64,000 bases of DNA from an uncultured Roseburia sp. (GCA_910577925.1 CAJTOI010000011.1:33491-97490), one strand, 5' to 3'; positions 14,477 to 55,580 are shown, counted from the first letter of the stretch. The notes: generated by a model from the letters alone, not told the origin. Numbers and translations: made by a program.

Positions 14477-14486
14477 GGAAACAACA

Positions 14487-15896: not shown

Positions 15897-15912
15897 ACGT
15901 TCAGAAACTGAA

Positions 15913-15960
15913 AACAGGCTGTGCAAAGTCAGATCACTGGTCATGCCAGCCTGTTTTTTC
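15913..15960 (+). terminator. intercistronic hairpin / partial terminator after the binding-protein gene
   Basis: AACAGGCTG (15913-15921) pairs with CAGCCTGTT (15947-15955), then TTTTTC; long 25-nt loop. Confidence 0.5.
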
Positions 15961-16005
15961 TGTAAAAAAGAGGTTATTTATGAAAAATAAAAAAGCAAGA
16001 AATAT

Positions 16006-16013
16006 AAAGAATT
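16006..16013. repeat. target-site duplication, left copy (AAAGAATT)
   Basis: Identical 8-mer at 17140-17147, directly flanking the IS ends. Confidence 0.8.
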
Positions 16014-17139: not shown

Positions 17140-17147
17140 AAAGAATT
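17140..17147. repeat. target-site duplication, right copy (AAAGAATT)
   Basis: See 16006-16013. Confidence 0.8.
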
Positions 17148-18828: not shown

Positions 18829-18846
18829 GCAGAGAGGTATAATGTT

Positions 18847-20514: not shown

Positions 20515-20529
20515 ATGAGGTGAACAGAC

Positions 20530-21459: not shown

Positions 21460-21470
21460 GGGGATTGGAA

Positions 21471-23168: not shown

Positions 23169-23171
23169 CAT

Positions 23172-23219
23172 AACAGGCGGCAGCATTCTAACAAAGAAAA
23201 GCGGCTGCCTGTTGTTTTT
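23172..23219 (+). terminator. terminator after the phosphorylase gene
   Basis: AACAGGCGGCAGC pairs 11/13 with GCGGCTGCCTGTT, followed by GTTTTT. Confidence 0.6.
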
Positions 23220-23580
23220 ACTTTGAATAAACAGTGTCATTTCTTGAAAGAAGATACACACAATACTGATTCATACTGATGTCTTCCCTTTTGGAATGTT
23301 CTGCAAATAAGCGATGCAAACTACGGGGTAATCTCAATTTAAACTGACCGGAATAATCTTCCAAGTTGTCCGGTTCATTAATCTTAATCCCCTCTTCCAG
23401 TGCGGCTTCAATCCATTCCCTCTTAGCATCCGATGCATTTGCCACCGCTTTTTCTATTGTTTCACCACAAGTAATACATCCCGGCAGATCAGGGTAAGAA
23501 ACCACAAAACCACCCTCATCCTTATCCTCCAGAATCTCCATCCGATAAGACATTGCCATATAGTCATTCGGCGTTTTCAT
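23218..23580 (-). CDS. hicB: HicB-family antitoxin-like protein (no HicA partner seen)
   Basis: HicB-fold N-terminus EDKDEGGFVVSYPDLPGCITCGETIEKA and RHH-like C-terminus KLRLPRSLHRLFAEHSKREDISMNQY. Confidence 0.75.
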   Translation of the reverse strand: MKTPNDYMAMSYRMEILEDKDEGGFVVSYPDLPGCITCGETIEKAVANASDAKREWIEAALEEGIKINEPDNLEDYSGQFKLRLPRSLHRLFAEHSKREDISMNQYCVYLLSRNDTVYSK

Positions 23581-23646
23581 CGTTTCTTTCCTCTATAAAA
23601 AGTTGTCTTAACAGTAATAGAAATAGGAGTGTAACAAAGGACAATC

Positions 23647-23679
23647 AAAAAGGGAATAAACCATTTCTGATTTATTCCC
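23647..23679 (-). terminator. rubrerythrin terminator (copy A of a 33-nt repeat)
   Basis: On the minus strand GGGAATAAA-loop-TTTATTCCC followed by TTTTT, 37 nt after the rbr stop. 31/33 identical to 54280-54312. Confidence 0.75.
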
Positions 23680-23715
23680 TCATCGTTCAAAATCCTTTAA
23701 AGTCCGGCGTTCTGA

Positions 23716-24303
23716 TTAGCCGAAGTATCTCTTTAACAGACCCTCAAGCGCCTTGCCGTGTCTTGCCTCGTCACGGGCCATCTCATGCACGGTGTCATGG
23801 ATTGCATCGAGGTTGTTCTTCTTTGCGCATTTTGCGAGGTCAAACTTGCCGGAGGTAGCGCCGAACTCGCAGTCTACACGCCATGCGAGGTTCTTCTTTG
23901 TGGAATCGGTCATGTTGGACTCCAGCTCGGAACCTAACAGCTCTGCAAATTTTGCAGCATGCTCAGCCTCTTCAAAAGCTGCCTTCTCCCAGTAGAGACC
24001 GATCTCCGGATAACCCTCGCGGTGAGCAACGCGTGCCATGCACAGGTACATACCAACCTCGGCACACTCGCCGTCGAAGTTTGCTTTTAACTGATCGAAG
24101 ATGAACTTCTTGTCCTCGTCGCTGATCTCGGAATTATTCTTAACCGTAGCGGCATAAACGCCGAACTCATGCTCTGCTGCAAGGGTAAGCTCGCCCTCTA
24201 CCTTTTTAAACTTGTCCGCACCTACGTGACATACCGGACACTCTGCCGGAGCTGCATCTCCCTCGTAAACATAACCACATACAGTACATACATACTTTGC
24301 CAT
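23716..24303 (-). CDS. rbr: reverse rubrerythrin (N-terminal rubredoxin-like domain + di-iron ferritin-like domain)
   Basis: CTVCGYVYEGDAAPAECPVC at the N-terminus, then ExxH di-iron motifs (EEAEH, DEARH). Confidence 0.9.
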   Translation of the reverse strand: MAKYVCTVCGYVYEGDAAPAECPVCHVGADKFKKVEGELTLAAEHEFGVYAATVKNNSEISDEDKKFIFDQLKANFDGECAEVGMYLCMARVAHREGYPEIGLYWEKAAFEEAEHAAKFAELLGSELESNMTDSTKKNLAWRVDCEFGATSGKFDLAKCAKKNNLDAIHDTVHEMARDEARHGKALEGLLKRYFG

Positions 24304-41230: not shown

Positions 41231-41365
41231 CAGAGAGGATGCCTGCACAGACGGCAGCTGAGGCGGACATGCCGCCTTACATCAAAGAATCTTCTGCCGC
41301 TTAATCGGGTACGAAAACATCAGGTTCATGGCTCCGGCCCTCCGGTATGATTTTGTCGAATCAAT

Positions 41366-41839
41366 TCATTTGGTCAGTTCAAGTACGGCGACTGCAGGTT
41401 CAAAAAGAACGACATAATTGTCAACGGTCGTGTAGGCGCCGTATTTGCCTTTGTAATAAGATATGGCATCTCTTAAAAAGTCTTCGGTTACATTGAGGTA
41501 TTCGGCGGTTTCGGAAAAGCTCTGACAGTGATGCCGGTAGGCGTTCAGAATCCCGTGTAAGCCGACGAGCCGGTCGTATGCGTGAATGCGGCCGCGCATC
41601 TCCTGCCTGCGGTTAGCCGCGGAAGACTGCAGAACGATATCTCCGACCGCGGTATAGTGGTGACCGAGTTCCTCCGCCAGAATGCAGGCTTTTTCGGCGT
41701 CTGTTTCCATGTTTTTACCCAGAGCAACCACACCGTCACAATAAAGGCCCTTTAAACGCTTGCTTTCGAGGGGATAATTTTCGATGACGGTTATATTATT
41801 TTTTTCTGCATGGTCCAAAAGTTTTTCGTATTCTGTCAA
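41366..41839 (-). CDS. ImmA/IrrE-family metallopeptidase
   Basis: HEXXH zinc motif in ILAEELGHHYT; lies downstream of the XRE repressor gene on the same strand. Confidence 0.85.
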   Translation of the reverse strand: MTEYEKLLDHAEKNNITVIENYPLESKRLKGLYCDGVVALGKNMETDAEKACILAEELGHHYTAVGDIVLQSSAANRRQEMRGRIHAYDRLVGLHGILNAYRHHCQSFSETAEYLNVTEDFLRDAISYYKGKYGAYTTVDNYVVLFEPAVAVLELTK

Positions 41840-41931
41840 ATTTATTACTCCATAATAATTGTTCGGATTTTCATCGCTGCCGTGAAGGTACCTTCCTAAA
41901 TAATATCACAGATGATGTCCAATAAATGAGA

Positions 41932-42258
41932 CTACTGCCGTCTGGATTTGACAAATTCGGCAAATTTTTTGATTTCGTCCAGTTCCGCTTCGGTGTATTC
42001 GTCGCCGTCAAAGTGGGCGGCGATGGTCCGGGGCTCATTTTCCCCGCTGCCGTCTGCAAATAAATAGGAAGTGGAAGTATTCAGCGCTTTTGCAAAAGCG
42101 GATATTTTACTTTGCGGCAGGTCTACCTTCCCCGCTTCGACTTTTGCAATGGCTGTCTTATCCTTATATCCGACTAATTCGGCGAGTGCGGACTGAGATA
42201 ACTTTTTTTCTTCCCGCAGAGCTTTGATTCTTAATCCCATCGATTCCTGTGCCGTCAT
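41932..42258 (-). CDS. XRE-family HTH repressor
   Basis: ORF 41932..42270 (TTG); the ATG at 42258 is more plausible. HTH LSQSALAELVGYKDKTAIAKVEAG. Confidence 0.85.
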   Translation of the reverse strand: MTAQESMGLRIKALREEKKLSQSALAELVGYKDKTAIAKVEAGKVDLPQSKISAFAKALNTSTSYLFADGSGENEPRTIAAHFDGDEYTEAELDEIKKFAEFVKSRRQ

Positions 42259-42284
42259 GCTGTTCACCAACCTTTCCTATAGTT

Positions 42285-42313
42285 ATCATACCATGAAAAA
42301 GAATTTTATTCAA
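42285..42313 (-). promoter_or_regulatory. leftward promoter for the XRE/ImmA genes
   Basis: Minus strand TTGAAT (42308-42313), 17-nt spacer, extended -10 TGGTATGAT (-10 hexamer 42285-42290). Confidence 0.6.
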
Positions 42314-42329
42314 CTTTTTTCGAAAAACA

Positions 42330-42346
42330 GTTGACAAAAATTCAAC
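42330..42346. promoter_or_regulatory. 17-bp operator-like palindrome Oa
   Basis: GTTGAC-AAAAA-TTCAAC, overlapping the -35 of the rightward promoter. Confidence 0.55.
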
Positions 42347-42359
42347 CGTGGTGTAATAT
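42331..42359 (+). promoter_or_regulatory. rightward promoter toward the tail genes
   Basis: TTGACA (42331-42336), 17-nt spacer, TAATAT (42354-42359). Confidence 0.65.
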
Positions 42360-42367
42360 GATCGCAG

Positions 42368-42384
42368 GTTGAACAATATTCAAC
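42368..42384. promoter_or_regulatory. 17-bp operator-like palindrome Ob
   Basis: GTTGAA-CAATA-TTCAAC, perfect arms, just downstream of the rightward -10. Confidence 0.6.
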
Positions 42385-42448
42385 AAAAAAGCAGAAAAAT
42401 GTTTGATTTGACAAAATCAAGGCCTCATAATATTTTTTTACAAAAGAA

Positions 42449-42465
42449 GTTGAATATAAATCAAC
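42449..42465. promoter_or_regulatory. 17-bp operator-like palindrome Oc
   Basis: GTTGAA-TATAA-ATCAAC, 5/6 arm symmetry, 20 nt upstream of the first tail-module ORF. Confidence 0.5.
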
Positions 42466-42486
42466 CGAGAAAGAAGGTGAGGAGCG

Positions 42487-42918
42487 ATAAATACGATAAT
42501 CGATGCGGTCGGAATCGCGCTGAATGAGGAATTTGGCGATAATTACACAATCCAGACGGAAGAGACCGGGCAGAACGAGGAGAACGCTTGCTTTTTTGTT
42601 TCCTGCATCAGCCAGACAAACAGCCGGATATCCGGGAACCGGTATTTTTGGGCAAATCAATTCCGCATTCGATATTTCCCGCAGACCGGTGAAAAACAGA
42701 AGGAATGCAACGATATTGCGGCAAGATTGCAGCAGTGCCTGGAATATATCACGATTCGCGGAGAGGACAGGCCGGCCCGGGGGACGAAGATGAAATGCGA
42801 GATAACGGACGGTGTCTTGAATTTCTTTGTAAATTACGACTGCTTCGTGATCCGGGTGAAACAGAAGGAATGTATGGAGCAGTTGGAAGGAAAGACCGGT
42901 GTGAAAGGAGGCGAGTGA
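42487..42918 (+). CDS. small tail-module protein (tail-terminator/XkdJ position), no canonical start codon
   Basis: Frame open from 42481 (after TGA 42478-42480) to TGA 42916-42918 with protein-like translation (INTIIDAVGIALNEEFGDNYTIQTEE...VLNFFVNYDCFVIRV). First ATG/GTG/TTG in frame is only at 42727; ATA at 42487 follows GAAGGTGAGGAG. Confidence 0.5.
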   Translation: MNTIIDAVGIALNEEFGDNYTIQTEETGQNEENACFFVSCISQTNSRISGNRYFWANQFRIRYFPQTGEKQKECNDIAARLQQCLEYITIRGEDRPARGTKMKCEITDGVLNFFVNYDCFVIRVKQKECMEQLEGKTGVKGGE

Positions 42919-43127
42919 TTTTGGCGGCAGTGAAAAAGCGGGAAACCGGTGCACAGGCAGAAAGCAGGATGGCGGAAGCGCTGTTCAATAAAGAGCAGAT
43001 TGCGGCATCAGGGCGATATCGCAGTCAAAGGGATCTGGTGGAGGCCCTTCTTACAGAGGGGAAAACGTACACCATCGCAGCAGTTGACAACATGATTGAG
43101 AAATACAGGAAAGGAAAGGTGAACTAA
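42915..43127 (+). CDS. small hypothetical tail-module protein
   Basis: GTG 42915 overlaps the upstream stop (GTGA) and follows AAAGGAGG. Ends 1 nt before the sheath ATG. Part of listed ORF 42705..43127. Confidence 0.5.
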   Translation: MILAAVKKRETGAQAESRMAEALFNKEQIAASGRYRSQRDLVEALLTEGKTYTIAAVDNMIEKYRKGKVN

Positions 43128-43128
43128 T

Positions 43129-44436
43129 ATGGCTTTAGGCGGCGGTAATTTTACCACACAGAATAAGGAATTACCCGGCACATACATCAACTTCGTGTCG
43201 GCGGCTTCCGCTTCGGCGGCATTATCCGGACGGGGGATTGCAACGATGCCTCTCGAGCTGGACTGGGGAAAAGAGGGAGAAGTTTTTGAGGTGACAAACG
43301 AGGAGTTCCAGAAAAACAGCATGAAGATTTTCGGATATGCGTTTGACGATCCGAAAATGAAGGGGATTCGTGATCTGTTTTTGGGAGCAAAAACTTTATA
43401 CGCATACCGCTTAAACGGCGGCGGGGAAAAAGCGTCAAATACATATGCGTCGGCTCTGTACGGCGGAACCCGCGGGAATGATCTGAAAATTGTGATTCAG
43501 GCGAACGCGGACGATGAGGCAAAGTTTGATGTGGCAACCTACCTCGGAACGGCAAAGGTGGACACACAGACGGTTGCGGCGGCATCCGAACTTACCGCAA
43601 ATGACTATGTGACTTTTAAAGCGGACGCAGAGCTCGCCGTTACGGCATCCATGCCGCTTGCAGGCGGGACAGACGGAACGGTCGACGGCACGGCGCACCA
43701 GAACTATCTCGATAAAATCGAGTCGTACACCTATAACACGATGGGTGCGGCGGTGACGGACGAGACGACAAAGAAGCTGTATGCGGCGTTTAACAGGCGC
43801 CTCCGGGATGAGATGGGAGTGAAATTCCAGCTGGTGCTTTACCGGATGAACGCAGACTTCCCCGGTGTGATCAGCGTGAAGAATAAGGTCACGGATGCCG
43901 GATGGAGTGAGGCTGCGCTTGTATACTGGGTGACCGGCGCCGAGAGCGGCTGCGCAGTCAATAAATCCTGTCAGAATAAGGTCTATGACGGCTCCTTTAC
44001 GGTTGATGCGGATTTCACACAGAACGAGCTGCGTCAGGCCATGAAAGACGGAGAGTTTGTGCTGCACCGGGTAAATACGGATATCCGCGTCCTGGAAGAC
44101 ATCAATACGATGGTTACGGTGACGGATACGCAGGGGGAAGTTTTTAAGGACAATCAGACCATCCGTGTCATTGACCAGATCGGAAATGACATTGCGGTAC
44201 TGTTTGCGACAAAGTATCTGGGTGTTGTCCCGAATGATGCGGCAGGCAGAGTCTCTCTGTGGTCCGATATCGTGGCGCATCACCGGGAACTGGAAAGAAT
44301 CCGTGCAATCGAGGATTTTTCCGACAGCGATGTGACCGTGGAGCAGGGGACATCAAAGAAATCCGTGGTTGTCACCGATCTTGTGACGGTCGTAAATGCG
44401 ATGAGCAAACTGTATATGACCTGCATGATATCTTAA
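43129..44436 (+). CDS. contractile tail sheath protein (XkdK-like)
   Basis: 435 aa; N-terminus MALGGGNFTTQNKELPGTYINF is typical of Firmicute phage sheath proteins. Confidence 0.9.
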   Translation: MALGGGNFTTQNKELPGTYINFVSAASASAALSGRGIATMPLELDWGKEGEVFEVTNEEFQKNSMKIFGYAFDDPKMKGIRDLFLGAKTLYAYRLNGGGEKASNTYASALYGGTRGNDLKIVIQANADDEAKFDVATYLGTAKVDTQTVAAASELTANDYVTFKADAELAVTASMPLAGGTDGTVDGTAHQNYLDKIESYTYNTMGAAVTDETTKKLYAAFNRRLRDEMGVKFQLVLYRMNADFPGVISVKNKVTDAGWSEAALVYWVTGAESGCAVNKSCQNKVYDGSFTVDADFTQNELRQAMKDGEFVLHRVNTDIRVLEDINTMVTVTDTQGEVFKDNQTIRVIDQIGNDIAVLFATKYLGVVPNDAAGRVSLWSDIVAHHRELERIRAIEDFSDSDVTVEQGTSKKSVVVTDLVTVVNAMSKLYMTCMIS

Positions 44437-44453
44437 GGAAGGAGTGAAGAAAA

Positions 44454-44936
44454 ATGAGCCAGAATGTGATTATGAATGCCAAGGACGCCGTGTACGGCAG
44501 TCTTGCAGAGTGTTTCATTACAATTGAGAACAGGCGTTACAATTTCATGAGCCTGACAGATTTTGAGAGTAAATGGGAGGTAAATATCACGGATGTTCCG
44601 ATTCTGGGAAAAGTCGGAATGGGACATAAAGCGGCAGGCGGAAAAGGTACATGGAGCGGCACGGCACATTACAACCAGTCCGTTTTCCGGGAAATGGCAA
44701 ACCATTACCAGAAAACCGGCGAAATGCCGTATTTTGAAATCCAGGTGAGCAATGAGGACCCTGTCAGCGCGGCGGGCAGACAGACCATCGTGCACAGAGA
44801 CTGCCTGTGCGACACGTTTGTGCTTGCGAAATTCCAGGCCGGTGAGGAGATTTTGGACGAGGAGCTCTCCGGAACTTTTGAGAGCTGGGACATGCCGGAG
44901 AAATTTAACGAGATAGACGGTTTTGTCGCGAACTAA
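44454..44936 (+). CDS. tail tube protein (XkdM-like)
   Basis: 160 aa immediately after the sheath gene; block ECFITIENRRYNFMSLTDFESKWE resembles XkdM-type tube proteins. Confidence 0.85.
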   Translation: MSQNVIMNAKDAVYGSLAECFITIENRRYNFMSLTDFESKWEVNITDVPILGKVGMGHKAAGGKGTWSGTAHYNQSVFREMANHYQKTGEMPYFEIQVSNEDPVSAAGRQTIVHRDCLCDTFVLAKFQAGEEILDEELSGTFESWDMPEKFNEIDGFVAN

Positions 44937-44956
44937 CAGAAAGGGGACAAGTATTT

Positions 44957-45388
44957 ATGTCAAAATTCAGCCGTTTTATGCGGACAAATAAAATCACAGA
45001 ACCAAATGTGAAGTATGCACCTACCCATACGCTTCTGGACGAAAACGGGAAGCCGCTGGAATGGGAATTTAAGCAGATATCTTCGAAAGAAAACGAGGAG
45101 CTGCGGGATTCCTGCACGATCGAGGTTCCGATCAAAGGAAAGCCGAACCTCTACAGGCCGAAGGTAAAGACTGCCGAATATCTCGCAAAGATGATTGTGG
45201 CATCGACGGTATATCCGGACCTGTATGACAAGGAGCTGCAGGACTCCTACGGGGTTATGACACCGGAAGAATTGCTCTATGCAATGGTGGATAATGCCGG
45301 AGAATATCAGGAATTTGCCGCCTGGATGCAGAAATTCCAGGGGTTTGCGAAGGGGCTTGACGATAAGGTAGACGAGGCAAAAAACTGA
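44957..45388 (+). CDS. tail assembly chaperone (XkdN-like), short form
   Basis: 143 aa between the tube and tape-measure genes; ends with slippery A_AAA_AAC followed by TGA. Confidence 0.8.
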   Translation: MSKFSRFMRTNKITEPNVKYAPTHTLLDENGKPLEWEFKQISSKENEELRDSCTIEVPIKGKPNLYRPKVKTAEYLAKMIVASTVYPDLYDKELQDSYGVMTPEELLYAMVDNAGEYQEFAAWMQKFQGFAKGLDDKVDEAKN

Positions 45389-45579
45389 TTGAGGGAGGGG
45401 ATGGTGAGGCGAATTTCGCCTACTATGCCCTCCATAAACTTCACATCCGGCCTTCTGTATTTCTTGAAATGGAGGAGCAGGAAAAGGCGTTTGTGATTGC
45501 CGCGATTAAAATCCGGCTGGAAAACGATAAAAAAGAAAGACAGAAAGCGGCAGACAAAGCGAAGCGAAGAAGAAAGTAA
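44957..45579 (+). CDS. tail assembly chaperone, predicted -1 frameshift long form
   Basis: The -1 frame is open from 45367 to TAA 45577-45579 and encodes LIEGGDGEANFAYYALHKLHIRPSVFLEMEEQEKAFVIAAIKIRLENDKKERQKAADKAKRRRK. It has no start codon of its own. Confidence 0.6.
45379..45385 (+). promoter_or_regulatory. -1 programmed frameshift heptamer A_AAA_AAC
   Basis: In the zero frame the codons are GCA AAA AAC TGA; X_XXY_YYZ pattern immediately before the stop. Confidence 0.6.
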
Positions 45580-45591
45580 TAGAAAAGGCAG

Positions 45592-48075
45592 GTGGGCAGG
45601 ATGTCAGGTATTCAGGCACAAATTGAGCTGAATGATCATTTCAGCAGTGTTTTAAACTATATTGTAAACGCCGTCAATCTTGCGGCTGCGGCGGAACCGG
45701 TTGAAGTTCCGGTTCACTGGGAGGTGAATGAAGTTCCGGTTTTTACCGGCACGGGAGCAGACCGCTTCCGGCAGGAAGTGCAGAGCGCGGACACCATGTT
45801 GGAACAGCTGTGCAATACACAGAATGCGATTGCGAAGCAGGCATACGAAACCATGCTGTTTCCGCCGGAAGCATTTCAGAATCTGAACACATTAGCGGTC
45901 AGAATTGATACGGTGCGGGAACGCATCCGGCAGATTGAGAGTAATCCGGTAAACATCGGAACCGACACTGCTAATGCGGAACTGGAACGTCTGCGCGGCA
46001 GCCTTGGCCAAATGGTGCAGGAACAGGCGGAACTGAACAGCGCCATGCAGAACAAGGACGTTTCAGCCGCAAATGACGCTTATCTGCGCCTGTCTCAGAC
46101 GGTCGGCGGGACAGAGCGTTATATCCGGGACAACGTGGACGAACAGGGGCGGTTTAATCAGGAGATACAAGCCGGGGCACAGCAGACAAACGGGCTGACC
46201 AACATGATAAAAAAAGTGGCGGGCGCATATATCAACGTGCAGAATGCCGGGAAAGTGCTGGATATATCGGATGAGCTGACGCAGGCGACGATGCGGCTTG
46301 ATTTGATGAATGACGGTCTGCAGAGTACGCCCGAGCTTGTCAATATGGTGTATGCGGCGGCGAGAAGTACACACGCCCCGTTTCTGGAAACGGCAGATGC
46401 CATCGCTAAAATGGGGAATGAAGCAGGCGGTGCCTTTGGATCCAATGCGGAATTAATCGCATTTATGGATCAGGCAAATAAACAGTTTGCAATCGGCGGC
46501 GCAGGCGCGGAGGATCAAGCGGCCGCAATGGAGCAATTGCGTCAGGCGATGGCGGCGGGAACGTTTAGCGGGAACGAATTAAATTCCGTTTTGGCCGCGG
46601 CCCCGCAAATTGCAGGGGCAATCGAACAAAGCATGGGTTGGGCAGAAGGCTCTATCATGTCGTATGCACAGGAAGGCGCCGTCACCGCGGAGGTGGTCAA
46701 GAACGCACTGCTTTCTGTGGCAGATGAGACAAACGCGGCTTATGAAAATGTGCCGGTCACATTTTCTCAGATGATGACAGACTTAAAGAGCGGTGCGCTC
46801 AAAGCGTTTCAGCCGCTCCTGCAGGGAATCAATGACATCGTAAACAGCGAGATCTTTCAGAGTTTTGCAGACGGTGCGGTTGAAGCGTTGGGGATACTTG
46901 CCGGGATGGCGACAGATGTGTTTGATATGATGATGGCGGCAGGCGGATTTATCGCGGACAATTGGTCGATTATCGAACCGCTTATTCTGGGGGTGGCTGC
47001 GGCGCTGATTGTGTACAATGCGACGATGGGTATTGCATGGCTTACGACACTGCAAGAGACAGCAGCAAAGATAGCAGGTGTTGCAGCCAGTGGGGCGCAG
47101 GCCGTAGCTACTTTTGCGGCGACGGTTGCGCAGCAAGGATTAAACGCTGCTCTTGCGGCATGCCCGCTTTCATGGATTATTATAGCGATTATTGCTTTGA
47201 TTGCGATTATCTATGCGGCCGTGGCGGCATTTAATAAATTTACCGGAGAATCCGTCTCGGCGACGGGGCTCATCATGGGTGCGTTTGCCGTACTTGCAGC
47301 GCATATCCTGAATACGTTTGTGATTCCGGTTATTAACGGGTTTGCAATGTTTGCAAACTTTATCGGAAATGTATTTCACAATCCGATTGCGGCGATTAAA
47401 GTGCTTTTTTATGACATGTGCCTGAATGTCATCGGCTATATTCAGAATCTGGCGCACGGAATAGAGACGCTGCTCAACAAGATACCGGGCGTGACGGTGA
47501 ATATCACGAGCGGGCTGGACAGCCTTTATGCAGAGTTAGCGGAGGCGCAGCAGGCGGTAAAAGACGAGTCCGGGTGGATTGAGTATGTAGGAAAGATAGA
47601 CTATATCGACGATACAGGCGCAATGAATGCAGGGTATGAGTTCGGCGCCGGCATTGAGGAGACAGTCAGCAATTTCAATCTGTCCGATATCTTCGGCAGC
47701 GGGGGATTACCAGGCTCGCAGGAGAGCCCGTTAAAGGACTTAGTATCGCAATTTGCCGGTGTAATAGGGAATCCGGGGACGGATGATAGTTTCGGCGGCA
47801 ATATGGAAGGGATGAGTGACAATCTCGGCAGTATTGCCGGGGACACCGGCGCGATTAAGGATTCCATGGACATCACGCAGGAAGACCTGAAGTATCTGCG
47901 GGATATTGCGGAGCAGGAAGCGATTAACAGATTTACAACGGCAGAGATTCATGTGGATATGTCAGGTATGAGCAACACGGTCAACAGCGGTGACGATCTT
48001 GACGGATTCATGTCAAAACTGACGGATTCGGTGTATGAAGCGGTTGACAATATGACAGAGGGGGTACATGCGTAA
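45592..48075 (+). CDS. tape measure protein
   Basis: 827 aa, Ala/Gly-rich with coiled-coil-like N-terminus and long hydrophobic central segments. Position after the chaperone pair. ATG 45601 is an alternative start. Confidence 0.85.
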
Positions 48076-48749
48076 TGGCAGACAGCGGTTATGAATTTTA
48101 CTTAGACAAATGCTTATTGCCTGTGACTCCGTCGAAGCTGGAGTTAAAGATTAACAATGCAAATAAGACGGTAACGCTCATCAATGAGGGTGAGATAAAC
48201 ATTTTAAAACGGGCAAAGCTGACGGATATCGAGTTTACCTGCGAGATTCCGCAGATGAAGTACCCGCATGCCGTCTATAAAGATGGTTTTAAGGGAGCGG
48301 ATTACTTCCTGGACTATTTTGAGTCGCTGAAAAACAGCGGCAAACCGTTTCCGTTTATCGTGTGCCGGGCGCTCAGTGACAAAAAGCTGTTCGGCACAAA
48401 CATGAAGGTAACGCTGGAGGATTACAAGCTGACCGAGGATGCCGGAAACGGCGTTGATCTTGAGGTAAAGATAGCGCTTAAGCAGTGGCGGGATTACGGC
48501 ACAAAAACGGTACATGTAACCGTGACGGCCCAGAAACCGCAGATGTCGGCGGGACCGCAGCGGGAGGGAGCACCGGCACAGCCAGGTACCTATACGGTGG
48601 TAAAGGGGGACTGTCTCTGGAATATCGCCAAACGATTTTACGGGAACGGTTCCATGTATACCGTTATCTACAATGCAAACAAAGGCGTGATCGGCGGGAA
48701 TCCGAATCTGATTTATCCGGGACAGGTGCTGACAATTCCGGCCGTATAA
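48075..48749 (+). CDS. LysM-domain tail protein (XkdP-like)
   Basis: C-terminal Lys[51 protein letters not shown]; ATG overlaps the TMP stop. Confidence 0.85.
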
Positions 48750-48758
48750 GGAGAATTT

Positions 48759-49742
48759 ATGGACATTGAACTTTTAATCGGGGACGAGACGGGGACAAAA
48801 GCGTATCTTCCCGCGGTGGAAGAAGGGATTGAGTGGACGACGGAACGGCGGGGCACACCGGGAAAACTGACGTTTCAGGTATTAAAGGACGACGCTCTCG
48901 ACTTTTCGGAGGGGAGCGCCGTCAGGCTCAAAGCAGACGGACATGAGATTTTCTTCGGCTTCGTATTTAAGCAGCGGCGGGAAAAAGACCGGATTATCAC
49001 GGTCACGGCATATGATCAGCTGCGGTATTTAAAGAATAAAGACACGATTGTCTATGAGAACAAAACCGCTGCGCAGTTTATTCGGATGATCGCAGCGGAC
49101 TATTCCATGAATCCGGGGCAGATCGATGACACCCTGTTTGTGATTGAATCGCGGGTAGAAGAAAACACGTCTCTGTTTGAAATGATAGAGAACGCCTTAG
49201 ACCTCGAGCTGACGAACACGGGGGAGCTGTATGTGCTGTACGATGATTTCGGCCGGTTGAGTTTGAAGCACTTATCGGAAATGTATGTGGGGGATAATGT
49301 AAACGGATACCTGATGATAGATGAGGAAACCGGAGAAAATTTCGAATACACATCCTCCATCGACGACAACACGTTCAACCGGATAAAACTGACTTATGAC
49401 AACGAGGAAACCGGACGGCGGGACGTGTACATCACGCAGGACGGGAGCAATATCAACCGGTGGGGGATTCTGCAGTACTTCGACACGCTGTCGAAAGGCG
49501 AAAACGGGCAGGCAAAGGCGGATGCGCTGTTAAAGCTGTATAACAAAAAGACGCGCAGCTTACGGCTCACAAACGCAATCGGGGATAACCGGGTGCGGGC
49601 AGGGTCGATGGTGATCATCTGTCTCGATCTCGGAGATATGAAGTTAAACAATTTTATGCTGGTGGAGACCTGCAAACACACATATCGGCAGGGGGAACAC
49701 CGGATGGATCTGACATTGAGGGGAGGCGAATTTGTTGGCTGA
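48759..49742 (+). CDS. baseplate hub-like protein (XkdQ/YqbQ position)
   Basis: 327 aa; order and size match XkdQ; family assignment from memory only. Confidence 0.7.
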   Translation: MDIELLIGDETGTKAYLPAVEEGIEWTTERRGTPGKLTFQVLKDDALDFSEGSAVRLKADGHEIFFGFVFKQRREKDRIITVTAYDQLRYLKNKDTIVYENKTAAQFIRMIAADYSMNPGQIDDTLFVIESRVEENTSLFEMIENALDLELTNTGELYVLYDDFGRLSLKHLSEMYVGDNVNGYLMIDEETGENFEYTSSIDDNTFNRIKLTYDNEETGRRDVYITQDGSNINRWGILQYFDTLSKGENGQAKADALLKLYNKKTRSLRLTNAIGDNRVRAGSMVIICLDLGDMKLNNFMLVETCKHTYRQGEHRMDLTLRGGEFVG

Positions 49743-50139
49743 TGCAAACGAGCTGGTTGCGGCGATGAAGAAGGCTGCGACCGAGGCGGTGGAAGCCGGA
49801 AAACCGGTCAATGTATTTTTCGGGAAGGTGAAAGCGGTAAAACCGCTCAATATTGACGTAGAGCAAAAGCTGCTGCTGGGTGAAAAGCAGCTGATACTTT
49901 CGCGGAGTGTGACGGATTACAAGATAACGATTACCGGAGGGAATACGAAGGATTATTATTACACCGGTTCGACAGCGGAATCCGGTACGGCGGCAGTCTC
50001 CCCGCCGCATATACATGCCATCGGAAAAACAGAAATCACCGTGCACAATGGGCTGGATGTCGGAGACGAAGTACTATTGATAAGGCAGCAGGAAGGACAG
50101 AAGTTTTTCGTGATAGAGCGAATAGGAGGTGCGGGATGA
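49732..50139 (+). CDS. DUF2577-like baseplate protein (XkdR position)
   Basis: 135 aa, TTG start overlapping the upstream gene. Confidence 0.65.
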   Translation: MLADANELVAAMKKAATEAVEAGKPVNVFFGKVKAVKPLNIDVEQKLLLGEKQLILSRSVTDYKITITGGNTKDYYYTGSTAESGTAAVSPPHIHAIGKTEITVHNGLDVGDEVLLIRQQEGQKFFVIERIGGAG

Positions 50140-50540
50140 TTCCGTCGACAACCGGATTTTTAAAGCAGGATATTGAAATCAAAGAGCAGCCGGGCAAAAC
50201 CTATGGGATGGACTTAAACGGCGATTCCGTCCGCGGGTATGCGGACGGGCGGGAAGCCGTACAGCAGGCGGTTTTCCGCATATTGAACACGGAGCGGTAT
50301 CGGTATCTGATCTACCCGTGGTGGTATGGGATTGAAACAACGGATTTATACGGGGAGCCGCTAAACTGGGTATGCGCGGAGCTGGAGCGCAGAATCGCGG
50401 AAGCGCTTCTTACGGATTCCAGAATCAAAAGTGTGACGGATTTTGAACATGACATCCGCAAAAAAGGAACGGTCCACACGACTTTTACCGTAAATACGAT
50501 ATATGGAGATGTGCGGGGGGAGAGAGAGGTGAGCATATAG
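50136..50540 (+). CDS. DUF2634-like baseplate wedge protein (XkdS position)
   Basis: 134 aa, 4-nt overlap with the upstream gene; block AVFRILNTERYRYLIYPWWYG. Confidence 0.7.
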   Translation: MIPSTTGFLKQDIEIKEQPGKTYGMDLNGDSVRGYADGREAVQQAVFRILNTERYRYLIYPWWYGIETTDLYGEPLNWVCAELERRIAEALLTDSRIKSVTDFEHDIRKKGTVHTTFTVNTIYGDVRGEREVSI

Positions 50541-51743
50541 ATGTATGAAAAAATGACAGATGATTTTCTGCGGGAACGGATGCTGGCGCGGGTATCGGAT
50601 AAGCTGGATAAACGGCCGAGCGCCCTGATATATGACACGCACGAGGCGACGGCAAACGAACTCGCAATCTTATACATTGAACTTGAATATCTGGTTAAAA
50701 ACTCATACGGCGATACGGCGGCCCGGGAATTTCTGACTTTACTGTGCAGGGACCGCGGAATTACGCCGGAACCGGCGAGCCGCGCCGTATTAAAAGGGGT
50801 ATTCGAGCCGGACAACATTGATGTGACCGGGAAGCGGTTTAACATCGGGGATATCAATTATACGGTCATGGAGCAGATTGCGCCCGGACAGTATCGGGTG
50901 GAATGTGAGTCGGAGGGCGTTATCGGAAACCGATATCTGGGACAGATGATACCGATGGACTACATACGGGGGCTGAACACGGCGGAGCTTGTGGAACTCT
51001 TAATTCCCGGGGAGGACGAGGAGGATACCGAAGCGCTGCGGAAGCGTTATTTTGACAGCTTTAACGAGCAGGCGTTCGGCGGAAACAGGACAGACTATGC
51101 CGCGAAAGTAAAGCGCATACCGGGCATCGGGGCTGTGAAGGTTACCCGCGTGTGGAACGGGGATATCCGTCCGGCCGAGCTGATTCCGACGAGTGCGGTC
51201 ACGGCGTGGTATGAGTCCGTGATAGGCGGCCTTGACAAAGAGACGGCCGATTGGCTGTCTGCGGTCTATCTGGCAGCGCTGCAGAAGAAATTGACGGTGG
51301 GAGGGACAGTGCTGGTTACGGTCGCAAATGCCGATGATTTCGGGGAGGCCGGCGACGTGCTGCTGAATGAAGTGCAGTCCGTGCTTGATCCGGAAGAACA
51401 TGCGGGTGAGGGGTACGGGCTTGCGCCGATCGGACATGTCGTAACGGTGAAAAGTGCAGAACCCGTCGAGATAAACGTCAGTACAACGTTGACGTTTGAG
51501 GACGGGTACGGCTGGAATAACCTGGAAGCATCGATTACAGGTGCGGTGGATGACTATCTGCTGGAGCTTCGGAGCAAATGGGCGGACAGCAATGATACAG
51601 TCGTCAGAATCAGTCAGATTGAATCCCGGATTCTGTCGGTGCAGGGAGTGGCGGATATTAAGGATACAAAACTGAACGGAAACGCCGAAAACGTAATATT
51701 GGGCGCGTATGAAATTCCGGTAACGGGAGGTGTTGGCGCATGA
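50541..51743 (+). CDS. baseplate J-like protein (XkdT position)
   Basis: 400 aa, starts directly after the upstream stop; size and order of Baseplate_J proteins. Confidence 0.8.
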   Translation: MYEKMTDDFLRERMLARVSDKLDKRPSALIYDTHEATANELAILYIELEYLVKNSYGDTAAREFLTLLCRDRGITPEPASRAVLKGVFEPDNIDVTGKRFNIGDINYTVMEQIAPGQYRVECESEGVIGNRYLGQMIPMDYIRGLNTAELVELLIPGEDEEDTEALRKRYFDSFNEQAFGGNRTDYAAKVKRIPGIGAVKVTRVWNGDIRPAELIPTSAVTAWYESVIGGLDKETADWLSAVYLAALQKKLTVGGTVLVTVANADDFGEAGDVLLNEVQSVLDPEEHAGEGYGLAPIGHVVTVKSAEPVEINVSTTLTFEDGYGWNNLEASITGAVDDYLLELRSKWADSNDTVVRISQIESRILSVQGVADIKDTKLNGNAENVILGAYEIPVTGGVGA

Positions 51744-52270
51744 TTCGAGAAGTCGACCTTGTTTCCTACTTACCGCCGTTTATGGCCAAGTACAGAGAAC
51801 CGGCTGCGGCACTTGAGGCCGAAAATCCCGAGTTTCTGCTTGCGTGGAGCGCTGCGGACCGGATTTTAAACAACCGGTTTCTGTCGACCGCGGACGAGTA
51901 CGGAATTTCAAGATTTGAAAAAATGCTGAAGATTTATCCGGACAAAGCAGACGACATAGAAACGCGGAGAACGCGGGTGCTGCTGCGCTGGAACAACCGC
52001 GTGCCGTATACGCTGCGCAGCCTGACGGCGAAGCTGAATGAGGTTTTAAAAGGCGGGCATAACTTTGTGCTCGAGCTGAAGGAGTATGAGCTTGTTTTGA
52101 CGGTATACGGGTTAGACGACAGTCAAAATGCGGAATTAGAGTATGTGCTGTCCGTAATGGTTCCGCTGAATATAACGACAGACATCATATATGAAAGCCC
52201 GCTTGCGGGGAGTGTGTTTTTCGGCGGAATTATGCAGGAAGCAGATCTGATCGAACTGAGAGAAAGGTAG
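51740..52270 (+). CDS. DUF2313/YmfQ-like tail protein (XkdU position)
   Basis: 176 aa, 4-nt overlap; N-terminal YLPPFMAKYRE...LSTADEYGISRFEKML block. Confidence 0.7.
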   Translation: MIREVDLVSYLPPFMAKYREPAAALEAENPEFLLAWSAADRILNNRFLSTADEYGISRFEKMLKIYPDKADDIETRRTRVLLRWNNRVPYTLRSLTAKLNEVLKGGHNFVLELKEYELVLTVYGLDDSQNAELEYVLSVMVPLNITTDIIYESPLAGSVFFGGIMQEADLIELRER

Positions 52271-52279
52271 GGAAAAGAG

Positions 52280-53692
52280 ATGGCATGGACAGGATTAACG
52301 CTGACGGTAGACGGAAGAAATGCGCTGAACCAGGCACAGATGAACAACAGATTGTGCTTTAAGGCGATTGTGATAGGGGACGGAAATCCTCCGGGAAATT
52401 TTGGGACGCAAAAGAGTCTGGTACATCCGTTATATGAGCTGACCGACTTGAAAGTCGACATGACGGACGAAGGCTGTGCTTTGACAGCGGACTTTCCTGC
52501 AGTCGACGCCGATTATTATTTTCGTGAAATCGGTGTGATCGTCGCCACGGAAGACGGCGATAAGCTGTATGTGTATGATAATTGCGGGGACGATGCACAG
52601 TACATTGTGTCCACGACGGGGGCGGAGCGGACACAGAAGAGGATACGGCTTTATCTGACAATCAGTGATGTTGCGGATGTCGCGGTGTCTGCGCCCGCCA
52701 TCCTGTATGTCGATTATGACGAGTATGAAAAGGATATCGAAGAATTGAACCAGAAGATCGATGTACTGGGTACAAATGATATCTCAGGTATTGGGGATGG
52801 GAGTGTGACGGGGGCCCTTACTGCACTGAAAGAATCAACGTCAAATAATGAAGATGCCTTGATAGCATTGGAACAGGTGATGGGTACAAAAGCAGGACAG
52901 GCAGAGACGGAGTCCGCCCTTGCCCGAAAGCTTGATAAAACCGGGGATGCGAAAGACACCACAGTGACATTTGCGAGTGCCGATGTGGCGGACGGAGGCG
53001 CAGGTGCGTGGACGAGTGTTGGGAAACTGTCAACAGGTGAAAAACTTGGCAGTGCATTTAATAAGGTATCAATGATGTTTAAAAATATCCGATATCTGTA
53101 TAAAATGCTCGGGACGACAAATATATCAGCGATTGGTGGAGGGACGGTGACGGGGGCAATCAGTAAGTTAAACACCGATTTGGGTGGGAAACAAAACGCT
53201 GCGACCGCTATAAATACTTCTAATATTGGTAGCCAGAGAGTAAATTATGCTACATCCTCTGGGACTGCAACGAAAGCCACACAGGACGGAAACGGACGCA
53301 ATATCGTAAATACCTATCTGCCCAAAAGTGATACTGGGGTTTATTACGGAGCGTCATTAACGACTGCAAAATCAATTCCAAATGATGTTGAAATAGAAAT
53401 ATTAACCGTTACAGCGGCCGTAACGGGTATTTACATGATTTTAGGCCAGGTCAATTTTGTGAGCAATAAAACAGGTCTGCGATATATATTGTTTAAAAAT
53501 AATGCCGCAGACGGGTCGTTTGGAGGGGTCCAAGTCGGCGCCTCACAGAGCGGTAAAACACAGGTGCAGGCATTTGGGGTAGGCGCATACGCGATTGGCG
53601 CCGGGGAGAAAGTCCGTTTATACGCAAAGCAAAACAGCGGCGCAGCGTTAAATGTATCGACCGCATACATGTCTCTCGTACGCCTAAAATAA
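52280..53692 (+). CDS. tail fibre / receptor-binding protein
   Basis: 470 aa, last gene of the module. Two copies of an I(S/A)xIGxGxVTGA motif. The C-terminal 169 aa lie inside the segment bracketed by the 15-bp inverted repeats. Confidence 0.8.
   Translation: MAWTGLTLTVDGRNALNQAQMNNRLCFKAIVIGDGNPPGNFGTQKSLVHPLYELTDLKVDMTDEGCALTADFPAVDADYYFREIGVIVATEDGDKLYVYDNCGDDAQYIVSTTGAERTQKRIRLYLTISDVADVAVSAPAILYVDYDEYEKDIEELNQKIDVLGTNDISGIGDGSVTGALTALKESTSNNEDALIALEQVMGTKAGQAETESALARKLDKTGDAKDTTVTFASADVADGGAGAWTSVGKLSTGEKLGSAFNKVSMMFKNIRYLYKMLGTTNISAIGGGTVTGAISKLNTDLGGKQNAATAINTSNIGSQRVNYATSSGTATKATQDGNGRNIVNTYLPKSDTGVYYGASLTTAKSIPNDVEIEILTVTAAVTGIYMILGQVNFVSNKTGLRYILFKNNAADGSFGGVQVGASQSGKTQVQAFGVGAYAIGAGEKVRLYAKQNSGAALNVSTAYMSLVRLK
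53168..53182 (+). repeat. inverted repeat, left copy (inside fibre gene)
   Basis: TTAAACACCGATTTG = fibre codons 297-301 (LNTDL). Perfect reverse complement at 53981-53995. Confidence 0.9.
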
Positions 53693-53980
53693 TTATATCT
53701 TAGATATTGTCATGAGCTGGTATATACCCATTAATTCACAGGTTTTATCAGATCTCAGTGTCATATTGCCAGTCGCGGAGTTGTACACATAATCTATGGT
53801 AATTGTGCCATCGGTGATGCGTCCTCTGGTATTAGTAATACCAATTAATGTATAAAATTTGGCATCGAAATTGATGTAAAATAATATCAAAAAACCTCTT
53901 AATGATATAGAAAATTCTTTTGGCGTATCCTTTCCCAGGTGACCGCCTCTATTCGTTAGGCCATATGTTAAGCTGTTACT
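53693..53980 (-). other. promoterless, inverted alternative fibre C-terminal cassette
   Basis: Minus-strand ORF 53693..53983 (96 codons). It continues in frame from the inverted LNTDL repeat, which is itself preceded by TAA. No RBS or ATG. Its stop abuts the fibre stop. AT-rich (about 35% GC in line 53701-53760). Confidence 0.55.
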
Positions 53981-53995
53981 CAAATCGGTGTTTAA
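53981..53995 (-). repeat. inverted repeat, right copy
   Basis: CAAATCGGTGTTTAA on the + strand; on the minus strand TTAAACACCGATTTG. Confidence 0.9.
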
Positions 53996-54007
53996 TTAAA
54001 ATCGTCT

Positions 54008-54279
54008 AACCATGCTGCATCCGCTGGAACTGCCACCAAAGCGACACAGGACGGGAATGGACGTAATATCGTAACTATTTATTTAACGAAAAGTGATCGG
54101 CGTATATTTCATACACGGCCAGGCGAACTTTGCAAGTAATAAGACCGGATTGCGTCGGTTGGAATTGAAAAATAATAATGTAAATGGTTTGTTTGGAGGA
54201 ACCCAGGCAGGGGCTTCAGGGAGCGGAAAAACGGATGTGCAGGTTGTCGGTATCAGCGGATCGACATTTGCAGCTAGAG
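54008..54279 (+). pseudogene. decayed third fibre C-terminal module (direct orientation)
   Basis: Two frames translate to NHAASAGTATKATQDGNGRNIVTIYLTKSD and IGVYFIHGQANFASNKTGLRRLELKNNNVNGLFGGTQAGASGSGKTDVQVVG. These parallel fibre residues NYATSSGTATKATQDGNGRNIVNTYLPKSD and TGIYMILGQVNFVSNKTGLRYILFKNN.... There is an internal deletion/frameshift and a 3' truncation. Confidence 0.65.
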
Positions 54280-54312
54280 AAAAAGGGAACAAATCATTTC
54301 TGATTTATTCCC
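54280..54312 (-). repeat. copy B of the 33-nt terminator-like repeat
   Basis: AAAAAGGGAACAAATCATTTCTGATTTATTCCC, 31/33 identical to 23647-23679, same orientation. Confidence 0.8.
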
Positions 54313-54645
54313 CCAACAAAATTGCGGTACTGCTTTAAAATGGAACCGGTGCGTATATGTGCGCCATTCGTTTAAAATAAGTCTAATGTAACATTTCCGG
54401 CGAGTCATTAAAACGCCTGGATTTGTGGCGACATTTGACAAGAGATGTCCATACATAAAGAATATTATGTAGTAAATGATATGAATAAAAACGGAGAGAG
54501 CAGACACTTGGATTTTTGGGGAACGTCGTTGGAAACTTCATAAATTAGGCGAATGCAAGAAGAGCTGCGGAAAAATAGTGAATCGAAATCATATGAGATT
54601 TAAAAATTTTCATTAGTGACAGGTTATGGTTATTGTCTGGTATGG

Positions 54646-54689
54646 TATAAGAACCCACATATAAAGTGCGGGTTCTTATACTTATTTTT
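54646..54689 (+). terminator. terminator-like hairpin at the end of the AT-rich tail-cluster remnant
   Basis: TATAAGAACCC pairs with GGGTTCTTATA, followed by CTTATTTTT. Confidence 0.55.
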
Positions 54690-54792
54690 CCTATGAAAAG
54701 GTGAATATTTTCTTGGCCTGTTTGATTAAAAAACAGACATATGAAAAAGTGTTACAGGCAATACAGGCTTCCGGCTTCGATAGAATCCCAAT

Positions 54793-55428
54793 TTATTCGG
54801 TAGATTGCTCGGCATTTCCTATATCAGAAGAATCTGCAGAGTTTATAATCTCTCCGGAATCAGCATTTATAAAATCTACATGAACATTGTCTACTGGTGT
54901 TCCGTTGAAAATATTATACATTCCGCCATACATATAATAGGCAATAACGGAGAGCGATTCGTTCAAACCTAATTCGACGGAAGTGGTGGTTATCTTAAAT
55001 TCTGTAAAATTATCATTTGCAACGATCTCCGTAAAATTTGGATAGTCCTCTGAACCAACCATATCAGACAGGCTGCTGTTAATATTGTTTGCCAAATCCT
55101 CCATCATTTCCTGATGCTGTATTTTACTCATGACATATGTGGCACTGCCGTCATCATTTAAGGTAATTGATTTATAGCCCTTTTCTTTTGCGATAGCATT
55201 TAAACCCTCTTGCGTGGTTTCACCCAAATAGTCAGCAGGAATTGTAAGTTCGACAGTAAGAAGATTTTTGTCAACGTCAACCTCGCCAATGACGTCTGGT
55301 TCGGAGGTACCTTCCTCGATGACAGATTTAGCAGTTTCATTGGAAGTATCGGCAGGGCTGTCGGTGTTTCCGCATGCAGAGAGTGTAAGCATGCAGACGA
55401 ATAGTGATGTAATAATTTTCTTTTTCAT
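54793..55428 (-). CDS. hypothetical lipoprotein
   Basis: Signal plus lipobox MKKKIITSLFVCMLTLSACGN; acidic mature part; AT-rich gene. Confidence 0.75.
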   Translation of the reverse strand: MKKKIITSLFVCMLTLSACGNTDSPADTSNETAKSVIEEGTSEPDVIGEVDVDKNLLTVELTIPADYLGETTQEGLNAIAKEKGYKSITLNDDGSATYVMSKIQHQEMMEDLANNINSSLSDMVGSEDYPNFTEIVANDNFTEFKITTTSVELGLNESLSVIAYYMYGGMYNIFNGTPVDNVHVDFINADSGEIINSADSSDIGNAEQSTE

Positions 55429-55580
55429 AAGTATTTGACCTCTTAATTTCGTGATATTCTTTAGTTATAATTCTTAATGGGTAATAGAACAATCCATTTT
55501 TTAATAATAGGAAGACCGGCGTATTACGCACAAACCCCTGTAAACGCAGGGTATGCAAGCGCTTACAGGGGTTTTCCGAG

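Follow-up and report, generated by a model that had tools for sequence, protein, structure and literature searches.

The 64,000-nt stretch of uncultured Roseburia DNA analysed here (the window) contains, at positions 41366–53692, an intact contractile-tail operon in the gene order of Bacillus subtilis PBSX and the Clostridioides difficile myophage phiC2, together with a protease/repressor gene pair that points away from the operon. We read this cluster as a domesticated R-type tailocin-like element, head-less and chromosomally fixed, and put the probability of that reading at roughly 0.6. It is carried by what could be observed directly, namely the gene content and its intactness, the absence of head and lysis genes, fixation at a single site, purifying selection, and switching of the fibre tip within the species. 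For a tailocin the element is unusual in that it has no linked lysis cassette, in that its switch is fused directly to the structural operon, and in its shufflon.

Pfam and PHROG profile searches were made with the listed six-frame open reading frames (ORFs) of the window. Annotation covers ∼5.7–64 kb, the ORFs of 1–5.6 kb and a few short stretches lying outside the profiling. The matches make up a complete contractile-tail set, comprising sheath, tube, chaperone, tape measure, baseplate, fibre and terminator (Table 1). From terminator to fibre the operon runs in one direction, with overlaps or gaps of 0–20 nt, and every ORF is full length. An earlier, sequence-only reading of this DNA had proposed a candidate tailocin with co-directional, tightly packed genes in the XkdK-to-XkdV order of PBSX. 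Profile hidden Markov models reproduced each of its structural calls, as well as the order, and annotation of the flanks placed the repressor/protease pair next to a complete tail module in a chromosomal setting, the head-less architecture that it had described. The inactivation of several structural genes, which it had named as a finding that would count against it, was not seen in the window. It had also noted two small ORFs between the repressor/protease pair and the sheath gene; there are indeed two genes, to which identities can now be added, the first being the tail terminator and the second a conserved 70-aa protein whose gene separates those of the terminator and the sheath in almost all of 80 related loci.

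Head, packaging, replication, integrase and lysis genes were all absent from the annotated ORFs. Outside the cluster these ORFs are all concerned with sugar utilisation or housekeeping, save for one IS1595-family transposase gene. When 14 head-module proteins from related prophages (terminase, portal, MuF, scaffold, capsid and head–tail adaptors, and gp10-like) were compared with the whole 64 kb by tblastn, only noise was returned. The sequence-only reading had found no terminase, portal, capsid, integrase, replication or holin/endolysin ORF, and both the annotation and the tblastn search bear this out. There are no obvious traces of integration either: the 3' end of tRNA-Ser is not repeated in the window, and neither border region contains convincing direct repeats resembling att sites. 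No plausible holin-like ORF lies 3' of the fibre gene. Many sibling strains, but not the window, have one or two genes for glycine-zipper membrane proteins (C19orf12-like, one with a SHOCT domain) between the shufflon and a lipoprotein gene, for example at 14473–14826 in L096 (117 aa) and 12700–14054 in L091; these proteins may or may not have a bearing on particle release.

Look-ups of exact proteins in ENA, Logan and the metagenome-assembled genomes (MAGs) of NCBI gave 16 other assemblies with the same head-less locus at the same site, with the same neighbours and junctions, at 97–100% DNA identity. One of these (L090) is 100% identical to the window across 20.5 kb. Identical junctions in 16 independent assemblies, with housekeeping genes to either side, rule out an assembly artefact or a split prophage, and with them the concern, voiced in the sequence-only reading, that a head module had been separated from the tail genes during assembly. 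The sequence collection lists the Gp48-like protein in 146 blocks and one variant of it in 128, and the ImmA-like sequence was found on 247 contigs; the host is therefore a frequently sampled member of the Lachnospiraceae.

Nei–Gojobori counts for the window against five same-species assemblies, all of which share the head-less junction, were used to estimate the ratio of non-synonymous to synonymous variation (pN/pS). For the pooled tail genes (9–10 kb) the ratio is 0.09–0.17, from 41.5–122 synonymous (Sd) and 19.5–54 non-synonymous (Nd) differences, and for the flanking host genes it is 0.04–0.08. Since the tail-gene values were obtained within the head-less lineage, they indicate that the cluster has been maintained, rather than decaying neutrally since the head was lost. 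Most of the 16 assemblies have the full set of 13 genes intact. The locus thus shows the chromosomal fixation and the upkeep within a species that are looked for in a tailocin. Identity along the locus is mosaic, the 70-aa gene being 87% identical in some strains and 100% identical in others.

Relatives of the sheath at 77% identity or more number in the thousands, in gut Clostridia. The nearest annotated phages, judged by the sheath, are the C. difficile myophages phiC2, phiMMP01 and CDMH1, which show 54% identity and the same gene order. The core tail module was present in 80 of 80 species-representative loci, and most of those that are long enough share all of the genes from the terminator to the Gp48-like gene. 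In most related loci, genes for terminase, SPP1-type portal, MuF, scaffold, capsid, adaptor and gp10-like proteins lie upstream of the terminator. Complete Lachnospiraceae prophages (for example L081, L002 and L007) have sheaths 74–84% identical to that of the window and all of the terminator-to-Gp48-like genes in common with it, but their head genes lie directly 5' of the terminator, in the place that the immunity switch occupies in the window. One of these, a complete [Clostridium] asparagiforme prophage (L007), encodes at 3319–5826 a MuF protein fused to an ADP-ribosyltransferase toxin domain, a known type of phage-borne polymorphic toxin.

These relationships also bear on whether the cluster might instead target the animal host or other eukaryotes, as an extracellular contractile injection system of the Afp, PVC, MAC or Bacteroidales type. 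The organism is a gut dweller, and such a system would share the contractile sheath, tube and baseplate core. We consider this extremely improbable, as in gene order and sequence the cluster matches temperate myophages of Clostridia (the 54% sheath identity to phiC2 being an example), the closely related sheaths belong to complete prophages, and the Pfam and PHROG matches over 41366–55428 include no AAA+ ATPase, no Afp-type duplicated tube or sheath and no toxin cargo.

Alignment with the phages locates the point at which the head genes were lost. The phage ATG faces GCG at 42484–42486, and the switch occupies exactly the place where the gp10-like gene of the phages ends, the deletion boundary falling exactly at codon 1 of the first tail gene. 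The position of the switch at the end of the gp10-like gene implies one or more deletions between the switch and the first tail gene, in addition to those on the integrase and lysis sides. A comparable loss is common among the relatives. Among the 53 species-representative loci with at least 6 kb of sequence upstream of the sheath, about a quarter (14) had no head-gene match, most of them with an HTH regulator as neighbour, and a 15th head-less locus has 4.7 kb upstream. The 112 upstream ORFs of these 15 loci include 14 that match HTH_3 and five that match Peptidase_M78, and the families shared by two or more members include no terminase, portal or capsid. In L004, L037, L047, L069 and L076 a sigma-70 region-4 or DUF1492-like ORF stands just before the terminator, which suggests for those loci a repressor–activator–tail arrangement with a PBSX- or pyocin-like cascade; no such activator is present in the window. 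In neighbour-joining trees of the sheath, Baseplate_J and YQBQ proteins the head-less loci are scattered among the complete prophages, with the exception of one small clade that is entirely head-less. It follows from this scatter that the head has been lost many times, and a single ancient head-less lineage is ruled out. All 15 of the head-less loci keep the terminator, and the boundaries therefore cluster at the neck/tail junction.

The terminator itself has an unusual 5' end. Its frame was missed by the ORF lister because it has no ATG, GTG or TTG start. After a TGA codon the ORF begins GGA GCG ATA AAT ACG ATA ATC, identically in the 16 strains that reach this region, and in these the first ATG, GTG or TTG comes no earlier than codon 82, such that gene callers find a 42-aa piece only. 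The ORF aligns to the profile of its family from residue 2–5 on, and its changes within the species (11 synonymous and 4–5 non-synonymous; pN/pS 0.09–0.12) reveal purifying selection. The most economical reading is that translation would initiate at the ATA at 42487, 7 nt past the Shine–Dalgarno sequence AAGGTGA. ATA would provide a weak start for a protein required in few copies, and only a few copies of the terminator are needed per contractile tail.

Retention under purifying selection of the tail part that meets the head is also what might be expected if the cluster were half of a split transfer system, its tails joining DNA-filled capsids supplied from elsewhere by a tail-less prophage, a capsid-forming satellite or a head cluster resembling that of a gene transfer agent. 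Such an arrangement would need no lysis module of its own if the other element lysed the cell, and switching of the fibre tip would fit control of the host range of a transfer particle equally well. However, the terminator is needed to finish a free tail too, the adaptor and gp10-like neck genes that stand beside it in the relatives are gone, there is no head cluster within the 64 kb, and no partner element was identified. We regard tail supply of this kind as improbable. That the locus is a repressor-controlled factory of retargetable tails for such capsids, and that in a gut commensal its shufflon determines the host range of gene transfer, seems very improbable.

We return to the tailocin reading and to its presumed control. 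The protease and helix–turn–helix repressor genes are adjacent, co-oriented and divergent from the operon, and are accompanied by operators, which is the layout of an ImmA/ImmR-type module. A near-consensus promoter on the plus strand (TTGACA-17-TAATAT, 42331–42359) is directed into the tail operon, and a second promoter lies on the minus strand at 42313–42285. Three 17-nt palindromes, GTTGAnnAnAnTTCAAC, are putative operators (42330–46, 42368–84 and 42449–65), and one of them covers the −35 box. Taken together, the predicted repressor, protease, promoters and operators have the anatomy of a phage immunity region.

The ImmA label applied in the sequence-only reading needs some qualification. 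It gains from the match to phrog_87 (Table 1), and loses from a score of 14.9 bits against Pfam Peptidase_M78, below the cutoff of 22, and from the presence of EELGH (41660–41680, residues 56–60) in place of HEXXH, with Glu for the first His. One homolog does pass the Pfam cutoff, at 27.5 bits. The motif LAEELGH(H/Y)YT is invariant in the protein and in five homologs found beside other head-less clusters, and pN/pS is 0.07 for the ImmA-like gene and ∼0.1 or lower for the repressor/protease pair. The protein is best described as a putative protease in a conserved, divergent branch of the ImmA/IrrE group. Cleavage of the repressor upon DNA damage would be expected by analogy with the ICEBs1 paradigm. 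Some strains (L085–L088 and L095) have an extra 3.3 kb at 41284–41333, between the ImmA-like gene and that for a 272-aa protein, which encodes an ABC ATPase, a membrane protein, a histidine kinase and a response regulator.

At its other end the operon closes with a fibre gene whose tip is exchanged in sibling strains. The 18-nt crossover site that follows the constant part of the gene is repeated in inverted orientation, with one mismatch, where 0.03 matches would be expected by chance. As the site encodes LNTDL in frame in both directions, the minus-strand ORF at 53995–53693 is an alternative fibre tip. Sibling strains have the fibre in common with the window exactly up to the site, and then continue into different tips. 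In siblings such as L093, L096, L099, L101 and L105 a gene for a 332-aa tyrosine recombinase (PF00589, 1.5e-37) lies between two pairs of cassettes. Cassettes c1–c4 and the recombinase gene occur in varying orders and orientations in L096, L099, L101, L102, L103 and L105, all of them sibling strains, and L099 has the recombinase gene in inverted orientation. The cassettes move without the few bases 5' of the 12-bp core AAACACCGATTT, which keep their position. Eight cassette types were found across the species, all of them intact ORFs of 83–174 codons, with 10–30% mutual identity except for one pair at 57%. The shufflon is thus active in sibling strains, and the tip switches within the species.

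The window, like L089–L092, has the first cassette pair only, the recombinase gene and the second pair being gone from before the decayed remnant. A deletion between two directly oriented sites is the likely route by which the recombinase was removed and tip A locked. Action of a recombinase from elsewhere in the window was considered and ruled out, there being no homolog in it. The end that the sequence-only reading had given for the cluster, 54312, should be drawn back, as it falls within the decayed remnant, where there is no gene. Neither the core nor the recombinase was present in the 80 species-representative loci, although most of these end at the fibre and the result carries little weight. 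Scans of IMG/VR and of the JGI metagenomes with a 20-mer spanning constant fibre and core gave nothing related, the sole JGI match (L112) being due to chance.

Purifying selection, the boundary at the first tail gene and the diversification of fibre tips within the species support the tailocin proposed by the sequence-only reading, which keeps its status as a candidate. Several points weigh against it. It is known from genes alone, in an uncultured organism. No holin or endolysin gene was found within or beside the cluster, from fibre to tRNA-Ser or upstream, in any strain. One published figure (PMC12713668, Extended Data Fig. 2) shows lysis-associated genes in the clusters of pyocin, diffocin, monocin and efagin, and in that of diffocin also regulatory ones, whereas the window cluster has no lysis genes. 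A dedicated lysis cassette is a usual, if not strictly defining, trait of tailocins, and release would here have to depend on unlinked lysis functions. A canonical start codon is missing from the terminator in every strain, the ImmA-like protein departs from HEXXH and scores below the M78 threshold, and the shufflon of the window is without a recombinase. Lesions occur in some strains: the sheath gene is split in two MAGs (L098 and L104), which is either real or a MAG error, L103 has lost everything from the XRE gene to the LysM gene, and L100 has transposase fragments 3' of the fibre. It is also possible that recombination imported variation already filtered in phages, which could have shaped part of the pN/pS values. 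Lastly, the locus is absent from three sister species (DnaX 84–86% identical), in which EcsC, pfk and dnaX are almost adjacent (L106, L108 and L109), and must therefore be young. Given the near-adjacency of EcsC and pfk–dnaX in the sisters, the species-specific part is a stretch of ∼21 kb (∼35200–56250) with TauE, tRNA-Pro, tRNA-Val, the uronate genes, the tail cluster, the lipoprotein gene and tRNA-Ser. An ArsC gene is retained beside pfk in one sister species (L109 and L110).

Such points would be expected of a cryptic prophage remnant that has no present function, a recent deletion derivative too young to have decayed. The missing lysis cassette, the start of the terminator, the lesions, the sisters without the locus and the loss of the recombinase from the window all fit, as does the frequent and independent loss of the head among relatives. 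We nevertheless think a remnant unlikely. Within a head-less lineage the 9–10 kb of tail genes have gathered about 100 synonymous and 30–50 non-synonymous differences, a pN/pS near 0.1 that is close to the value for the host genes; most of the 16 assemblies retain every one of the 13 genes intact, and the silent fibre cassettes are intact without exception; and the first tail gene is kept in 15 of 15 head-less relatives, with boundaries that lie non-randomly at the neck/tail junction.

If the cluster is a tailocin, its origin would be a temperate myophage of Lachnospiraceae of the phiC2/PBSX type. On one side deletions would have taken out the integrase, early/replication, packaging, head and neck genes, and on the other the lysis module, leaving the switch of XRE repressor and ImmA-like protease joined directly to the first tail gene. 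The repressor, bound to three palindromic operators over the near-consensus sigma-70 promoter, would silence the 11-kb tail operon until a stress signal, by analogy with ImmA/ImmR DNA damage, removed it by way of the ImmA-like protein. Terminator, sheath, tube, chaperones, tape measure, baseplate and fibre would then be made and would form DNA-free sheathed rods, the fibre tip binding a surface receptor on related bacteria and contraction puncturing the envelope. Induction, particle assembly, killing and release are the steps that we infer.

Several known systems resemble this scheme in part. The diffocin of C. difficile (CD1359–CD1379, 21.8 kb) is likewise a Gram-positive, head-less contractile-tail cluster related to phiC2-type myophages, a likeness that is drawn through phiC2 (54% sheath identity and gene order) rather than from direct comparison with diffocin genes. 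The diffocin cluster is longer and its particles are proven, whereas the window cluster is known only as a set of genes, its switch abuts the first tail gene, and its species has a fibre-tip shufflon. The target of diffocin is set by the receptor-binding protein (PMC10481535).

PBSX shares with the window the tail order and families, including the XkdN-type chaperone, LysM, YQBQ/XkdQ, DUF2577, sheath initiator, Baseplate_J and Gp48-like proteins. PBSX also has a sigma-like late activator and a lysis cassette. It is under repressor control and kills without injecting DNA, and it keeps terminase, portal and capsid and packages 13 kb of host DNA (PMC12946183). The late activator, head genes and lysis cassette of PBSX are all absent from the window, which therefore has the tail order of a PBSX-like defective phage without its head and packaging genes. 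The R-type pyocins of Pseudomonas aeruginosa are closer in being head-less, chromosomally fixed contractile tails that are repressor-induced and aimed at related strains. The pyocins also have PrtN, a separate activator, as well as a holin and a lysin of their own. Pyocins are, however, Gram-negative and derived from P2, and their kinship to the window cluster goes no deeper than fold families.

The exchange of fibre tips also has precedents. In carotovoricin Er of Pectobacterium the C-terminus of the fibre is switched by DNA inversion, which alters the killing range and parallels the switching of tips in the siblings. The carotovoricin invertase Ein is of the serine type, and the host is Gram-negative. 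In contrast, the recombinase here is a tyrosine recombinase, there are four cassettes per locus and eight types in the species, and the window has a locked two-cassette remnant. The gene for the carotovoricin invertase was found in just 47% of loci (PMC13195805), a pattern matched by the patchy recombinase of this species. The Rin shufflon of Bifidobacterium prophages has, as in the siblings, a tyrosine-family invertase beside alternative receptor-binding C-termini with a short common repeat, and its tips are 6–30% identical (PMC6109161). The prophages that carry Rin, in Actinobacteria, are complete, inducible and of siphophage type, and the Rin repeat is 11 bp long, whereas the present cluster is a head-less contractile-tail cluster of a Firmicute with the 12-bp core. 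A full-text literature search gave no paper naming both tailocins and shufflons, and no paper focused on tailocins of Lachnospiraceae was found. A 2023 review names diffocin as the sole head-less R-type tailocin that is well documented in Gram-positive bacteria, and holds that the capsid genes are generally kept by Gram-positive producers (PMC10538166).

The cluster is embedded among chromosomal genes. Its upstream neighbours are AraC, GH88 and SDR genes, an RpiB-like gene and that for the 272-aa protein, which has no family match. Farther upstream are tRNA-Val and tRNA-Pro and then TauE, EcsC, RelA_SpoT, UDPGP, YitT and PTA_PTB (pta) matches, and there is a low-GC island for sugar transport and amylases with the IS1595-family transposase. 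This island (13000–24000, GC 0.39–0.46) has a LacI regulator, a sugar ABC transporter and two amylase-family enzymes, and the transposase gene (16098–17108) lies between its binding-protein gene and its permease genes. Downstream are the lipoprotein gene, tRNA-Ser(CGA), an ArsC/Spx-like gene, pfk, dnaX, recR and transketolase genes. The GC content is also low (0.40) over 53700–55500, which holds the fibre-cassette remnants and the 211-aa lipoprotein gene (54793–55428, minus strand); that gene shows 100% identity across the three siblings with which it was compared (L089, L091 and L090, the assembly identical to the window), and the stretch may be the last piece of the right end of the ancestral prophage. 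A hairpin between the fibre and lipoprotein genes is probably a bidirectional terminator that would close both the tail operon and the convergent lipoprotein gene. A search of 40–57 kb with Rfam gave tRNA alone and no regulatory RNA, NCBIfam added nothing for the unassigned ORFs, and a look-up of the protein at 12442–13293 returned no record.

Table 1. Features of the cluster and its borders, in window coordinates, with the evidence for each
Feature	Position	Strand	Evidence or remark
ImmA-like metalloprotease, 157 aa, putative anti-repressor	41366–41839	-	phrog_87 metallo-protease 4e-31
XRE-family HTH repressor, 112 aa	41932–42270	-	HTH_3 3e-12, HTH_31; several PHROG repressor families
Divergent control region, 216 bp	42271–42486		Promoters and palindromes; conserved in 16 strains
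Tail terminator	42487–42918	+	PF20765 6e-34; phrog_525 2e-36 over full length
Conserved 70-aa tail-module protein	42915–43127	+	phrog_966 1e-19
Tail sheath	43129–44436	+	Phage_sheath_1/1C/domII, Gp18_domIII_N (four sheath Pfam domains)
Tail tube	44454–44936	+	DUF2001 6e-47
XkdN-type tail assembly chaperone	44957–45388	+	Phage_TAC_5 4e-44
Chaperone −1 frameshift extension	45376–45579	+	Slippery heptamer A AAA AAC at 45379–45385; PHROG matches
Tape measure protein	45601–48075	+	TMP_3 7e-37
LysM tail protein (XkdP-like)	48075–48749	+	LysM 2e-9
YQBQ/XkdQ-like baseplate hub	48759–49742	+	PF24032 3e-111
DUF2577 (XkdR-like) baseplate protein	49732–50139	+	PF10844 2e-25
Sheath initiator (gp25/XkdS-like; former DUF2634)	50136–50540	+	PF10934 5e-27
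Baseplate_J (XkdT-like)	50541–51743	+	PF04865 1e-44
Mu Gp48/XkdU-like baseplate protein (former DUF2313)	51740–52270	+	PF10076 1e-19
Tail fibre / receptor-binding protein, 470 aa	52280–53692	+	Weak phrog_19961 tail fiber match, 5e-7, only
Fibre constant part	52280–53167	+	Common to sibling strains
Crossover site, core AAACACCGATTT	53168–53185	+	18-nt site
Expressed tip cassette A	53186–53692	+	Fibre C-terminus
Silent intact tip cassette B, 100 codons	53693–53995	-	In frame with LNTDL; inverted crossover site 53978–53995
Decayed fibre C-terminus remnant	53996–54380	+	Stops and frameshifts; also after last site in L096
G+C-rich hairpin and T run (inverted repeat I4)	54645–54681		Sequence

If the reading is correct, the cluster would be a truly head-less tailocin in the Lachnospiraceae, which are among the dominant families of the gut. 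It is kept by selection in a species for which the public sequence collection lists cluster proteins in well over 100 blocks, and about a quarter of the related loci in other species look alike. We propose tentatively, and with somewhat less than even confidence, that Lachnospiraceae repeatedly convert myophage prophages into retargetable tailocins, which would make these an unrecognised class of weapon in a dominant gut family. The tyrosine-recombinase fibre shufflon, the missing lysis cassette and a putatively expressed terminator without a canonical start codon could inform our understanding of how phage parts are domesticated. A functional cluster would be a strain-specific weapon that shapes gut communities, and would offer a scaffold for engineered narrow-spectrum antibacterials, as has been done with diffocins and avidocins.

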